Assembly: GCA_003228585.1 (NCBI GenBank)
Contig: QIEJ01000109.1
Coordinates: 1 to 37,665, forward strand
Length of the DNA: 37,665 nt
Origin: Pseudomonadota bacterium
Lineage (GTDB): Bacteria > BMS3Abin14
Reading direction: 5' to 3'
The notes below the pieces were generated by a model that had not been told where the DNA came from, made no database searches, and worked only from the letters and a program-made list of their open reading frames with translations. The position numbers and the translations under genes were made by a program. How positions within the stretch are numbered: position 1 is the first letter of the stretch; each line of letters starts with the position of its first letter. This document shows positions 6,955-10,187 of the stretch, piece by piece.

Positions 6955-7932
6955 TTAACTCTCCCTTGGTCCCTGGACGGGGAGCGCCACCGGGATCCCC
7001 GGGGCCTTCAGCTTGGCATCGATAAAGGCCTGCATCTTGGCGATGTGTGCATCGGTAAGATGTGCGAAGCGCTGCTGGCCCTTCATGTACCCAGCGACAG
7101 GCTTGTACTCTTTGGGAGTGTGCTGATAGGTGTACTCGCCGTTCTCCCACTCGTAATTGACCCACATTCCTGTCTCGATGGCCAGTTTGGCGACCTCAAC
7201 GGTCTTCTTGGCATCGAACAGCCAGCCCTTCGGGCAGGGGGAATGAATGTGTACGAAGGTCGGGCCCTTGTAGTTGAGCGCCTTGCGGACCTTGTTGATG
7301 AGATCAACAGGATAGGCCAGCGAAGCCGTCGCCACGTAGTGCACGGCCGGATGTCCACCGATGACCAGCTGGCAGGCATCCTTGGGGAACAGCACCTTAC
7401 CCTCGGGAATGGCCTTGCCCGGGGGGGTGAAGGTCGTGTTGGCGCCGTAGGGTGTCGCCGGCGAAGTCTGGATACCCGTGTTCGCATAGGACTCGTTGTC
7501 ATACATGATGAAGAGAGCATCGTGACCTCTGTACATCATACCGGACATGGCCTGCAGGCCGATGTCAATGGATCCACCGTCACCAGCCATGCAGACGATG
7601 TTGGGGAGTTTTCCCTTGTACTTGCCCTTCCGGATGAGGACCTGATAGGCTGCCTCGATACCGGAAGCTACGGCCCCGGCGTTGGTGATCTGGGTGTGCA
7701 TCCAGGGATAAGCCCAGGGGCTGCATAGATAACTGGTGTTGGCAACGTACATACAGCCTGTCGGTCCGAGAAAGATCGAATCGCCTCCTGTCGCCTTGGA
7801 CACCAGTTTGTAGGTAAGAGCCGGTCCACAACCCTGGCAGGTCCGGTGCCCGGGAAGATACCATTCCTCCTGGGGTACCCTGCGGGCCGACTTGGCCATT
7901 TCCAGGTTCTGAGTTTCAACTGCTTTCGCCAT
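6955..7932 (-). CDS. oorB: Oxalate oxidoreductase beta subunit (TPP-binding; 2-oxoacid:ferredoxin oxidoreductase family)
   Basis: [27 protein letters not shown]...[13 protein letters not shown] motif, HSPCPKGW; closely resembles Moorella thermoacetica OorB as I recall it. Confidence 0.88.
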
Positions 7933-7998
7933 TATATTCTCCTTATCAACTTATCAGCATCTATCAATCTGCTGACAGGCTAAAGACATTGATATCGC

Positions 7999-9189
7999 CT
8001 AGACCTTGTCGAAGTTCACCCAGTATACGTACTGGTCGACCTTGCCGTCCTTGGCTGCCTGGGTGAGAACCTTCGCCATGCTGTAGAACTCCTCGAGGGA
8101 GACGACCTCACCACCGAGACCGGCCATGAAAGAGGTAACAGGCGGAGGGTTGGGCACGTCGTACAGAGCGGACCGGACCTCATGAATAAGGTTTCCACCC
8201 TTCATGGCTCCACCGTAGGAGGTGCTCGTCTCGATGGTTCCAACAGCCTTGAACTTGGAAAGGCTCTCGGCAACAGCTTCTGTGGGGAACGGCCTCATGA
8301 AGCGCAGCCTCACCATACCAGCCTTGACGCCCTTTTCCCTGAGATGGTTCACGGCAAAACGGGCCGTCCTTGCGTGGCCGCCCTGCAGGAAGAAGACGAA
8401 CTCAGCATCGTCCGTCATGTACTCCTCCAGGAAGGGGTCGTAGTTTCGGCCGAACTGCTTGTTGAAGTCAGCGACGGCCTCTTCAATGACCTTGGGGGTA
8501 TCGATAAATGCCTGGGCTCTCTGGAGATCGATGGCCGGTCCCTGGTCGGGAAAGATCTGCGGACCGTGGGAGACAGGCTTAGTGGGATCCAGAGGATGGG
8601 GGTTGTTAAAAGGCGGCAGATACTCGTCCACAGCCTTCTGATCGGGGATGCTCACCTTCCCGGGGATGTGGGAAACGAAGTAACCGTCCTGGCAGCAGAA
8701 CTGGGGCAGCAGAACCCTGGCATCCTCACCGATCTTGAAATACATGATGGTGTTGTCCAGGACTTCCTGCGGATCGGCAGCCCAGCCCATGATCCATCCC
8801 TGATCTCGAGCGCTCATGACGTCGGTGTGCTCGGACCCGAAGTCACCTGGAGGATCAAGCGCGCGGTCTGCGATGGCCATCTGGCAGGGCAGTCGCCCGC
8901 CGGCGGCAGGAGAGTAGCACTCCATTGCGTAGGTCACACCCACACCGGAGCTTCCCGTGTAGGCCCTTGCCCCGGCAGCGGATGCTCCGTAAGCAATGGA
9001 AACCTGGGCATGCTCACCCTCGCCGTGAACAAACTCGGCATCGAGCTCGCCGTTGGCGACCAGTTTGGACAGTTCCATCATAATCCCCGTGTAGGGGCGA
9101 ATGGGGTAAGAGCTGATAACCTCGACTCTTGACAACATGGCACCGTAAGCTGCAGAAGAGCAGCCAGCCAAAAACATTTCTTTCGCCAT
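7999..9189 (-). CDS. oorA: Oxalate oxidoreductase alpha subunit
   Basis: YPIRP (Arg31, where PFOR has YPITP), GEGEH (Glu59), ADRALDPPGDFG (Arg109, Asp116, Phe117), GPQ (Gln211); these positions match the M. thermoacetica OOR numbering. Confidence 0.9.
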   Translation of the reverse strand: MAKEMFLAGCSSAAYGAMLSRVEVISSYPIRPYTGIMMELSKLVANGELDAEFVHGEGEHAQVSIAYGASAAGARAYTGSSGVGVTYAMECYSPAAGGRLPCQMAIADRALDPPGDFGSEHTDVMSARDQGWIMGWAADPQEVLDNTIMYFKIGEDARVLLPQFCCQDGYFVSHIPGKVSIPDQKAVDEYLPPFNNPHPLDPTKPVSHGPQIFPDQGPAIDLQRAQAFIDTPKVIEEAVADFNKQFGRNYDPFLEEYMTDDAEFVFFLQGGHARTARFAVNHLREKGVKAGMVRLRFMRPFPTEAVAESLSKFKAVGTIETSTSYGGAMKGGNLIHEVRSALYDVPNPPPVTSFMAGLGGEVVSLEEFYSMAKVLTQAAKDGKVDQYVYWVNFDKV

Positions 9190-9204
9190 TTTATATTCCT
9201 CCTC

Positions 9205-9552
9205 CTAGAAAGGTTTCTCCAGGCGGACCACACCACCTTTGAATTCCAGTTCGTTGACTGCGCTGATGCAATCCACGGGGCACTCGTTTTCACAGATGAG
9301 GCAGCCCTTGCAGTAGTCCGCGTTCCAGACCATCTTCTCTTCCTTCTCGTCCAGATGCCAGGTGGCATCGGGGCAGAAGAGAAAACAGTTCAGGCACAGA
9401 GTGCAGGCCTCATGGTCGATAACCGGACGGACAGTTCTCCAGTTCCCGGTGATCATCCCCTTGTTCTCTTTCTTGTTCGCGGGGAGAACCGCTCCCAGGG
9501 GGACCTGCAAGTGTTTAGGAATATTGAACTTTTCGCAGTACTTTTTGCTCAT
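9205..9552 (-). CDS. oorD: Oxalate oxidoreductase 2x[4Fe-4S] ferredoxin (delta) subunit
   Basis: GMITGNWRTVRP, CTLCLNCFLFCP and CKGCLICENECP; has its own SD (AAGGAG). Confidence 0.85.
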   Translation of the reverse strand: MSKKYCEKFNIPKHLQVPLGAVLPANKKENKGMITGNWRTVRPVIDHEACTLCLNCFLFCPDATWHLDEKEEKMVWNADYCKGCLICENECPVDCISAVNELEFKGGVVRLEKPF

Positions 9553-9581
9553 AACTTTCTCCTTCCAGGCTCAAAGACGTT

Positions 9582-10187
9582 TTACAGGTCTTTTACCACT
9601 GCTGACTCGTAGCCCGCTTTGGCACCCTCTTTGTTGGCCGACACCGCGACCAGGCTGTCAATGGTCAGGTTGTCAGTTCCGTGGCATGCAGCACCGGCCA
9701 GCACCGCCGAGATTCCAGCACCGACAGCGGAGACTTCAACGCCACCCTCAGATCCCATGAAGTCCAGACCTTCCATGGAGAACTCCTCCTCGGCGTCAAC
9801 ACAGATGATCTTGCTGAGCAGGTCCTTGTTGGGGATGAACTTGAGGATCTCATCGGGAGATCTCTTGGAGTTGACGACCAGGACTCCGCCTTTATCCATG
9901 CCCCAGAGAATATTCAATCCCTTGACGATGGTGTCGTCCATGATCACGACCAGGCTGGGGTTTTTGTTCTCATACTCGTAGCGCATCTCGATCTCTTCAT
10001 CGCTGATGCGGACATACTTCCGCAGTGGAACTCCAACTCTGTCAGGCAGGTCCGCATAATCGTCCCACGCCTGAACAAACTTGCCGTCCTTGTCCGCTGA
10101 GCTGGCCATGATAAGGGTCATGTGTCGCCCTTCCATATCCTGGACCACCCCGCGCGCCCAAATAGTAATTTCATATACATCGGACAT
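9582..10187 (-). CDS. Oxalate oxidoreductase gamma subunit (OFOR domain III)
   Basis: ITIWARGVV, VQAWDDYADLPDR, YENKNP, GSEGG (candidate Glu plug loop), GAGISA; matches the N-terminal domain of the fused M. thermoacetica third subunit. Confidence 0.85.
   Translation of the reverse strand: MSDVYEITIWARGVVQDMEGRHMTLIMASSADKDGKFVQAWDDYADLPDRVGVPLRKYVRISDEEIEMRYEYENKNPSLVVIMDDTIVKGLNILWGMDKGGVLVVNSKRSPDEILKFIPNKDLLSKIICVDAEEEFSMEGLDFMGSEGGVEVSAVGAGISAVLAGAACHGTDNLTIDSLVAVSANKEGAKAGYESAVVKDL

Follow-up and report, generated by a model that had tools for sequence, protein, structure and literature searches.

A gene cluster for a probable four-subunit oxalate oxidoreductase, with Cdc48-type ATPase and TctCBA genes alongside, in a Pseudomonadota bacterium of the BMS3Abin14 lineage

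Four minus-strand genes on contig QIEJ01000109.1 (assembly GCA_003228585.1) of a Pseudomonadota bacterium in the GTDB lineage BMS3Abin14 almost certainly encode an enzyme that oxidises oxalate directly to CO2, as judged from sequence comparison. The whole stretch of DNA analysed here, positions 1 to 37,665 of this contig, is referred to as the window. We consider it very probable that the four products form a four-subunit oxalate oxidoreductase (OOR; EC 1.2.7.10) orthologous to the Moorella thermoacetica enzyme, and that they lie at the core of a larger oxalate module. OOR is a thiamine pyrophosphate (TPP)-dependent enzyme with three [4Fe-4S] clusters that converts oxalate to 2 CO2 without coenzyme A (CoA), passing two low-potential electrons to ferredoxin; to our knowledge, the enzyme of M. 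thermoacetica, an acetogen, is the only characterised member of its clade. A first-pass annotation, made from the sequence alone, had proposed OOR rather than pyruvate:ferredoxin oxidoreductase (PFOR), and the structural relatives, NCBIfam scores, conserved alignment columns and trees described below bear this out.

The closest solved relatives of both catalytic subunits are chains of the Moorella enzyme: alpha matches OOR 5c4i_A with E 4.2e-160 versus E 5.3e-62 for the PFOR chain 9bt4_B, and beta matches OOR 5c4i_C with E 4.8e-145 versus E 5.8e-78 for PFOR 9bt4_C, while gamma and delta correspond to the two halves of a single OOR chain, 5c4i_B (residues 13-207 and 227-314). An OOR model is likewise the top NCBIfam match for each of the four proteins. 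Alpha passes the OOR equivalog NF045791 (601.1 bits; cut-off 500) and stays below the cut-off of the next family, PorA (298.6 bits; cut-off 550); beta stays below that of its own next family, PorB (323.8 bits; cut-off 405); and gamma and delta jointly span profile positions 13-315 of the OOR delta model, which describes the fused 316-aa form. Pfam resolves the four subunits only into domains generic to 2-oxoacid:ferredoxin oxidoreductases (OFORs), namely POR, a ferredoxin-type dicluster domain, POR_N plus PFOR_II, and TPP_enzyme_C. The PorABDG form of PFOR (e.g. PDB 9bt4) shares the four-gene architecture, the fold families and the TPP and Fe-S motifs with the window, but carries the Thr of YPITP where the window has Arg, and the window's scores to PFOR are less than half those to OOR.

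To stand for the Moorella-type enzyme and locus, we used genome G093, whose alpha is identical to 5c4i_A at 392 of 395 positions. It came from a set of 401 genomes sampled from the phylum to which a Syntrophaceticus metagenome-assembled genome (MAG) belongs, and 31 of the 401 carry an OOR alpha; OOR was also present in 7 of 30 genomes of the class of genome G001, the Moorella-type sequence not being among them. Identity between the window and this reference locus is 59% for alpha, 66% for beta (202/306), 41% for gamma (80/195) and 47% for delta (41/88). The fused gamma-delta gene of G093 has an in-frame TAG at codon 47 (L116:11544-11546), where 5c4i_B has Gln; either an error in sequencing or a pseudogene in this strain could account for it.

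The four genes follow one another in the order gamma-delta-alpha-beta with tight spacing in the list of open reading frames (ORFs), and the interval 6955..10187 assigned to them in the first-pass annotation fits the minus-strand ORFs exactly (Table 1). The window shares the length and numbering of alpha and beta with Moorella OOR (PDB 5c4i, 5exd and 5exe; NF045791, NF045792 and NF045790), to which both subunits align without gaps. It differs in having two genes for domains III and V, which in Moorella form one 315-aa chain. Gamma ends in a TAA stop, and a ribosome-binding site (GGAAGGAG) precedes the ATG of delta; these clean signals, together with the finding that 57 of 73 loci in the clade uniting the window with the Moorella-type enzyme (hereafter clade A) have split genes and about 11 have fused ones, indicate that the split is no artefact but the commoner form. 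A frameshift artefact as its origin was thus ruled out. The cofactor sites are complete: beta keeps the TPP motif (GDG at 117-119 through to Asn146) and the cluster ligands Cys32, Cys35, Cys60 and Cys233, and delta carries two CxxCxxCxxxC [4Fe-4S] motifs (Cys50/53/56/60 and Cys81/84/87/91), so that all twelve cysteines for three [4Fe-4S] clusters are in place.

Table 1. Features of the oxalate oxidoreductase cluster in the window (a dot marks features listed without a strand)
Feature	Position	Strand	Evidence
CitMHS-family anion permease	901-2355	-	also beside the cluster in L001 and L039
Extended short-chain dehydrogenase/reductase (SDR; epimerase/dehydratase fold), 319 aa	2319-3278	-	Pfam Epimerase
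Terminator-like hairpin 3' of tctA	3330-3363	-	
TctA large membrane subunit	3377-4900	-	Pfam TctA, 452.7 bits
TctB small membrane subunit	5041-5514	-	Pfam TctB
Periplasmic binding protein of the TctC family, 327 aa, signal peptide present; putative oxalate receptor	5617-6600	-	Pfam TctC
15-bp GC-rich hairpin directly 3' of the beta stop	6891-6926	.	no T-run on coding strand
OOR beta (domain VI; TPP and proximal cluster), 325 aa	6955-7932	-	5c4i_C E 4.8e-145
ESYANTG, beta 147-153	7474-7494	-	direct translation
OOR alpha (domains I-II), 396 aa	7999-9189	-	5c4i_A E 4.2e-160; NF045791 601.1 bits
Gln211 of alpha	8557-8559	-	direct translation
RALDPPGDF, alpha 109-117: Arg109 and switch/plug loop with Asp116, Phe117	8839-8865	-	direct translation
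Glu59 of alpha	9013-9015	-	direct translation
YPIRP motif with Arg31, alpha 28-32	9094-9108	-	direct translation
OOR delta (domain V), 115 aa	9205-9552	-	aligns with 5c4i_B 227-314, E 3.9e-24
OOR gamma (domain III), 201 aa	9582-10187	-	aligns with 5c4i_B 13-207, E 1.4e-48
GntR/FCD-family transcription regulator, 238 aa	10264-10980	-	Pfam GntR and FCD
Cdc48/VAT-type double-AAA ATPase, 724 aa	10996-13170	-	Pfam CDC48_N and 2x AAA
Three exact TGGTCnGACCA palindromes, candidate FadR/GntR-type operators	13209-13219, 13248-13258, 13329-13339	.	
Sigma-70-like promoter TTGACA-17-TACATT before the Cdc48-type gene	13342-13370	-	consensus match, 10/12

In phmmer, alpha and 5c4i_A align gap-free over residues 3-394 of both, and residue numbering is therefore identical to that of the Moorella enzyme. 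Translation and this alignment together confirm the earlier placement of YPIRP, Glu59, Arg109, Asp116, Phe117 and Gln211 at Moorella positions, and translation alone locates the predicted ESYANTG in beta. The Moorella enzyme and the window have YPIRP, Arg109, Asp116, Phe117, Gln211, the TPP motif and the twelve cluster cysteines in common. These features are unequal in diagnostic value. Glu59 and Arg109 do not discriminate, as Glu occupies the former position in 113 and Arg the latter in 115 of 116 diverse OFOR representatives, and ESYANTG belongs to a general TPP-binding stretch at which PFOR beta 9bt4_C aligns with NEAYMNTG. At the sequence level, the residues diagnostic of OOR are Arg31, Asp116, Phe117 and Gln211; in the 107 representatives lacking Arg31, column 116 holds mostly Asn, Ser, Thr or Gly, column 117 Ile, Leu or Val, and column 211 is varied. 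Phe117, Gln211 and Glu59 presumably all have active-site roles in Moorella OOR. The shared residues exceed what chance would give: all 81 clade-A alphas combine [YF]PIRP with Glu59, Arg109, Asp116, Phe117 and Gln211, and the window retains every one of the 75 columns that are invariant across the other 80. Of the 112 columns that do not vary among the 43 alphas in the Moorella-type subclade (Bacillota plus one Synergistota row), it retains 106; the six departures are conservative, one of them being a Thr-to-Ala change at position 110 in the switch loop. Passages of PMC5020499 describe the YPIRP motif of the Moorella enzyme as unique, Arg31 as binding the charged substrate, Arg109 as the conserved carboxylate-binding Arg, and Arg31 and Asp116 as working in a 'bait and switch' plug-loop mechanism.

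Phylogenetic reconstruction led to the same assignment. Our first alignment comprised 109 alphas: that of the window, 107 from the collected loci after removal of four duplicates (three loci with broken alpha ORFs were excluded), and a single YPITP-type OFOR from the window's own genome. In the resulting tree, the window and the Moorella-type row fall in one clade of 81 rows, clade A (SH-like approximate likelihood-ratio test, SH-aLRT, 97). Within it, the window lies in a 23-row subclade (SH-aLRT 100) labelled Pseudomonadota, Methylomirabilota, Deferrimicrobiota and 'delta' MAGs, and the Moorella-type row in a 41-row subclade of Bacillota and Synergistota (SH-aLRT 99). A wider outgroup was drawn from a search over 1.84 billion representatives, which gave 4129 matches at E <= 0.001 and 391 at 1e-30; of the 150 matches listed at the 50% identity level, the 116 of at least 360 aa were kept and the 34 shorter ones dropped. 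Arg31 is present in 9 of these 116 and the full signature in 4. In the tree of 153 alphas, the 30 rows with the full signature make up one side of a branch with SH-aLRT 100, and the 108 rows without Arg31 one side of another with SH-aLRT 99. Grouping outside the OOR clade, which would have contradicted the first-pass annotation, was not observed: the window's alpha falls within that clade with SH-aLRT 97-100.

Both trees also place the window outside a sister OOR-like clade (Chloroflexota, Binatia and one Methylomirabilota; loci L053-L080), which has YPIRP, Arg109, Phe117 and Gln211 and often an adjoining GntR regulator, as the window does. Unlike the window, the sister clade has Ala at position 116 (27 rows) in place of Asp116, a single fused third subunit of ~350-400 aa in place of split gamma and delta, and no Cdc48-type gene (0 of 22 assessable loci), with alpha identity to the window of 41-46%. 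Two further locus variants were recovered. Ten Acidobacteriota loci (L012-L017, L020, L022, L027 and L049) have an ORF of ~610 aa with a weak delta match (47-62 bits) in place of the delta ferredoxin. The Betaproteobacteria loci L007-L011 have an extra ORF of ~290-350 aa with weak delta likeness after beta and, where the locus is long enough, a second of ~725-775 aa with weak alpha/beta likeness; their Cdc48-type gene lies downstream rather than upstream.

Gene neighbourhood analysis shows the OOR genes embedded in a longer cluster, which runs from a promoter with three GntR-type palindromes through the genes for a Cdc48-type ATPase and a GntR/FCD regulator, gamma-delta-alpha-beta, tctCBA and the SDR to an anion permease gene. 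The Moorella-type locus has the order GntR/FCD, Cdc48, fused gamma-delta, alpha, beta, a major facilitator superfamily (MFS) transporter, SDR and ClC. The GntR/FCD regulator, the Cdc48-type ATPase and the extended SDR are thus common to both, but the first two stand in reverse order in the window, TctCBA takes the place of the MFS transporter, and a CitMHS permease that of ClC as second anion carrier.

With 800.5 bits, the ATPase falls short of the TIGR01243 cut-off (802.65); it shares 51% identity with its counterpart in the Moorella-type locus. The protein has Walker A motifs at 228 and 502, Walker B motifs at 283 and 557, and the aromatic pore loops KFYG and KWVG, and its gene is the only Cdc48-type gene in the genome. 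The C-terminus, ending in PIVPKQMH, lacks the hydrophobic-Tyr-X (HbYX) tail that serves as docking motif for the 20S proteasome. Among the clade-A loci that could be assessed, i.e., those with at least 3.8 kb upstream of alpha, and with loci grouped by the alpha tree and not by the ATPase, a Cdc48-type gene lies within 8 kb of OOR in 59 of 60, the exception being L010. It is upstream and on the same strand in 61 of the 64 loci that show one, although these locus counts are not independent because many of the loci are kin. Its position and co-occurrence suggest that the ATPase probably acts on OOR itself, in assembly, repair or turnover. Complex prediction for OOR gamma with the Cdc48 N-domain (residues 1-190), based on a 58-row alignment for each partner and run with no controls, gave 0.08 and 0.25, below the mark of 0.32, values that speak neither for nor against binding. 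A full-text literature search combining oxalate, CDC48 and ferredoxin oxidoreductase returned no described link between OOR and Cdc48.

Downstream of beta, the window encodes all three components of the tripartite tricarboxylate transporters (TTT; TctABC/Bug; receptors 4x9t, 2qpq, 6hke, 2f5x, 7ndr and 8hka), including the signal peptide of the receptor. This is the only Tct system in the genome, with one TctC, whose closest solved relative is the uncharacterised 4x9t_A (E 2.4e-30). Across the 60 loci with enough downstream DNA, beta is followed by TctC in 16, by an MFS protein in 20 and by ClC in 9. In three related Bacillota loci, the MFS protein at this place scores above the threshold of the oxalate/formate antiporter equivalog (395-450 bits; cut-off 335), and on this ground TctCBA occupies an oxalate-carrier slot. 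The titles and abstract openings of the literature matching tripartite tricarboxylate transporter and oxalate made no oxalate-specific TTT system evident. The SDR is identical at 139 of 306 positions (45%) to that of the Moorella-type locus (L116:5997-6938) and occurs in 18 of the 49 loci with at least 7 kb downstream, which makes it a recurrent partner of OOR clusters; searches found no close solved relative (best 71 bits) and only NCBIfam matches far below their cut-offs. A terminator-like hairpin lies 3' of the anion permease gene, as it does 3' of tctA.

At the other end of the cluster, the only three exact TGGTCnGACCA copies in the window all precede the ATPase gene, and the same palindrome lies no more than 180 nt ahead of the Cdc48-type gene in L001 (three copies), L039 (three copies), L002, L050 and L051. 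A second GntR/FCD gene, on contig C57 of the same genome (2902-3600), matches the cluster regulator with 349 bits. Just upstream of the promoter-like site, 153 bases at 13382-13536 are replaced by 5 letters in a contig of another study that is otherwise 98-99% identical, which is strain variation. Beyond this point, positions 13574-37665 carry same-strand housekeeping genes encoding a GTP-type phosphoenolpyruvate carboxykinase (PEPCK), Usp, AzlC, aminotransferases, DNA polymerase I, GlnE, an IF-2B-family (MtnA-like) protein, GatB, a GatA-like amidase and ThiC.

To place the cluster in its organismal context, we surveyed the rest of the genome (2.09 Mb in 276 contigs, 98.1% complete). Neither gene of the Oxc/Frc pathway was found: the best match to TIGR03254 (Oxc) scored 217.4 bits against a cut-off of 739.4, and TIGR03253 (Frc) had no match, in agreement with the earlier proposal that oxalate is used without this pathway. 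Searches of the same genome recovered no dsrA, acetyl-CoA synthase or haem-copper oxidase. Without acetyl-CoA synthase, the host, unlike Moorella, is not an acetogen. RnfC (518 bits) and a single NiFe hydrogenase are encoded, and 13 ORFs each contain seven or more CxxCH motifs. Within the same family, 12 of 15 further genomes encode an OOR alpha above the cut-off, as against none of 25 genomes of other families in the same sample. Labels of the closest loci read 'bacterium' or 'Pseudomonadota bacterium', with Deltaproteobacteria, Deferrimicrobiota and Desulfuromonadaceae MAGs coming next; they bear only loosely on the 'deltaproteobacterium-like' description in the first-pass annotation.

Apart from the possible source, four studies have metagenomes of hydrothermal-vent, marine and marine-sediment origin that contain near-identical DNA; this habitat listing excludes the small-share runs X11 and X13-X16. 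In a run of another study, contigs 98-99% identical to the window span 815-13599 and hold the whole 12.8-kb cluster in the same order. Three metatranscriptome libraries from three studies contain short contigs 92-96% identical to the window on the four OOR genes, and one run also on tctC and tctA. None covers 800-2507 or 10194-12328, the latter taking in GntR and the greater part of the Cdc48 gene, although such contigs cannot show absence; in run X17 a trace on the Cdc48 gene starts at about 12733.

Several alternatives to an OOR orthologue native to this organism were weighed against these data. Many homologue records would make the enzyme an ordinary four-subunit pyruvate (or 2-oxoisovalerate) ferredoxin oxidoreductase, and the gamma-delta-alpha-beta layout typical of Por/Vor enzymes, the six close homologues named PFOR in NCBI records and the generic character of the Pfam domains all agree with such a label. 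We nevertheless regard it as highly improbable, given the Arg in place of Thr31 of YPITP, the PorA and PorB scores below their cut-offs, the separation of the alpha from 108 YPITP-type alphas (SH-aLRT 99-100), and the presence in the genome of a separate YPITP-type OFOR on contig C85 with further alpha/beta-like OFOR ORFs on C97 and C12. Somewhat less improbable, but still unlikely, is an enzyme of the OOR clade that physiologically acts on a different small acid, such as glyoxylate, oxamate or mesoxalate, imported by the Tct system. The Moorella enzyme alone has been assayed, the OxlT-type MFS transporter is replaced here by a TctC of unassigned ligand, a conserved SDR with no assigned function sits within the cluster, and the six differing Moorella-subclade columns include position 110 of the switch loop. 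Yet all six of these differences are conservative, the four diagnostic residues and all 75 clade-invariant columns are retained, and synteny with the Moorella-type locus extends to the Cdc48, GntR and SDR genes.

Recent horizontal acquisition, or a binning error, would leave the genes uninformative about the metabolism of the organism. Fragmentation of the assembly into 276 contigs is compatible with this, as is an OOR tree that interleaves Pseudomonadota, Methylomirabilota and 'delta' labels; the GC content of the window, however, is even (0.52-0.58 up to base 34000), the housekeeping genes for PEPCK, PolA, GlnE, GatAB and ThiC surround the cluster on the same 37.7-kb contig, the same flanks (Usp, PEPCK) recur in L001 and L039, OOR is present in 12 of the 15 other family genomes, and an independent run shows the same 12.8 kb in the same order. 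We accordingly give this possibility very little credence. Other observations temper the assignment to a native OOR with dedicated accessory genes. Beta scores 562.7 bits on its NCBIfam OOR model, 27 below the cut-off of 590, and gamma (206.3 bits) and delta (96.2 bits) each fall below the cut-off of 230 of the OOR delta model, which fails on them singly because it was built on the rarer fused form. The 109-row tree came from a short IQ-TREE search under LG+G4 with SH-aLRT as its only support and a single outgroup, and the 153-row tree likewise from a short search with SH-aLRT support only. Activity, substrate and CoA-independence lie beyond what sequence can establish for an alpha 59% identical to the sole characterised clade member; the roles of the Tct, GntR and Cdc48 proteins are argued from position and co-occurrence alone; and TctC is without a characterised close relative. 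The RNA-library contigs hint only weakly at transcription, because they derive from strains 4-8% different, were found with the same genes, and come from libraries that can hold DNA.

With a native OOR as the preferred reading, the cluster can be tentatively assembled into a functional scheme. The GntR protein, bound at the three palindromes, would repress the operon until oxalate is present; TctCBA would import oxalate in place of the OxlT-type MFS transporter of the Moorella-type locus; OOR would oxidise it to 2 CO2 on TPP without CoA; and the three [4Fe-4S] clusters would hand the electrons to ferredoxin. Rnf might then re-oxidise the reduced ferredoxin, feeding an anaerobic respiration through multihaem cytochromes, or the single NiFe hydrogenase might serve instead. 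The Cdc48-type ATPase may meanwhile maintain OOR in one of the ways suggested above. Taken as a whole, the idea of a self-contained oxalate-respiration module in a vent or marine-sediment anaerobe that is neither acetogen nor sulfate reducer, with an oxalate-dedicated TctCBA and an OOR-dedicated Cdc48/VAT unfoldase, is speculative, and we think it rather less likely to be right than wrong. If true, it would include new biology in two respects: a tripartite tricarboxylate-family transporter would serve the C2 dicarboxylate oxalate and displace an OxlT-type MFS carrier, and a Cdc48/VAT-type unfoldase would act as assembly or repair factor for one metabolic enzyme, OOR. Electrons from oxalate would also drive respiration through Rnf and multihaem cytochromes.

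The enzyme type itself is already known and is recognised by the NCBIfam OOR models and by JGI names. The expectation in the first-pass annotation that automated pipelines would label these genes pyruvate synthase therefore fails for alpha, which passes NF045791 and is now caught by NCBIfam, but stands for beta and the split gamma and delta, which are still below their cut-offs. Names in use for homologues are mixed: among the best 120, 41 are named, and 22 of these names contain 'oxalate oxidoreductase' while 19 do not. JGI contributes 7 entries as 'oxalate oxidoreductase subunit alpha', 14 as 'pyruvate ferredoxin oxidoreductase alpha subunit/oxalate oxidoreductase subunit alpha' and 11 with generic pyruvate/2-oxoacid names; NCBI contributes 6 as PFOR, 2 as 'transketolase C-terminal domain-containing protein' and 1 as OOR alpha.

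The exchange of an MFS carrier for Tct and the conserved Cdc48-type ATPase are best seen as testable leads rather than discoveries. What the comparison adds is that OOR with an intact active site is a conserved trait across a family of marine and vent anaerobes, beyond one acetogen. These organisms combine OOR with Rnf and many multihaem cytochromes and lack both the Wood-Ljungdahl pathway and sulfate reduction, which suggests that oxalate serves them as an electron donor for respiration in such sediments.

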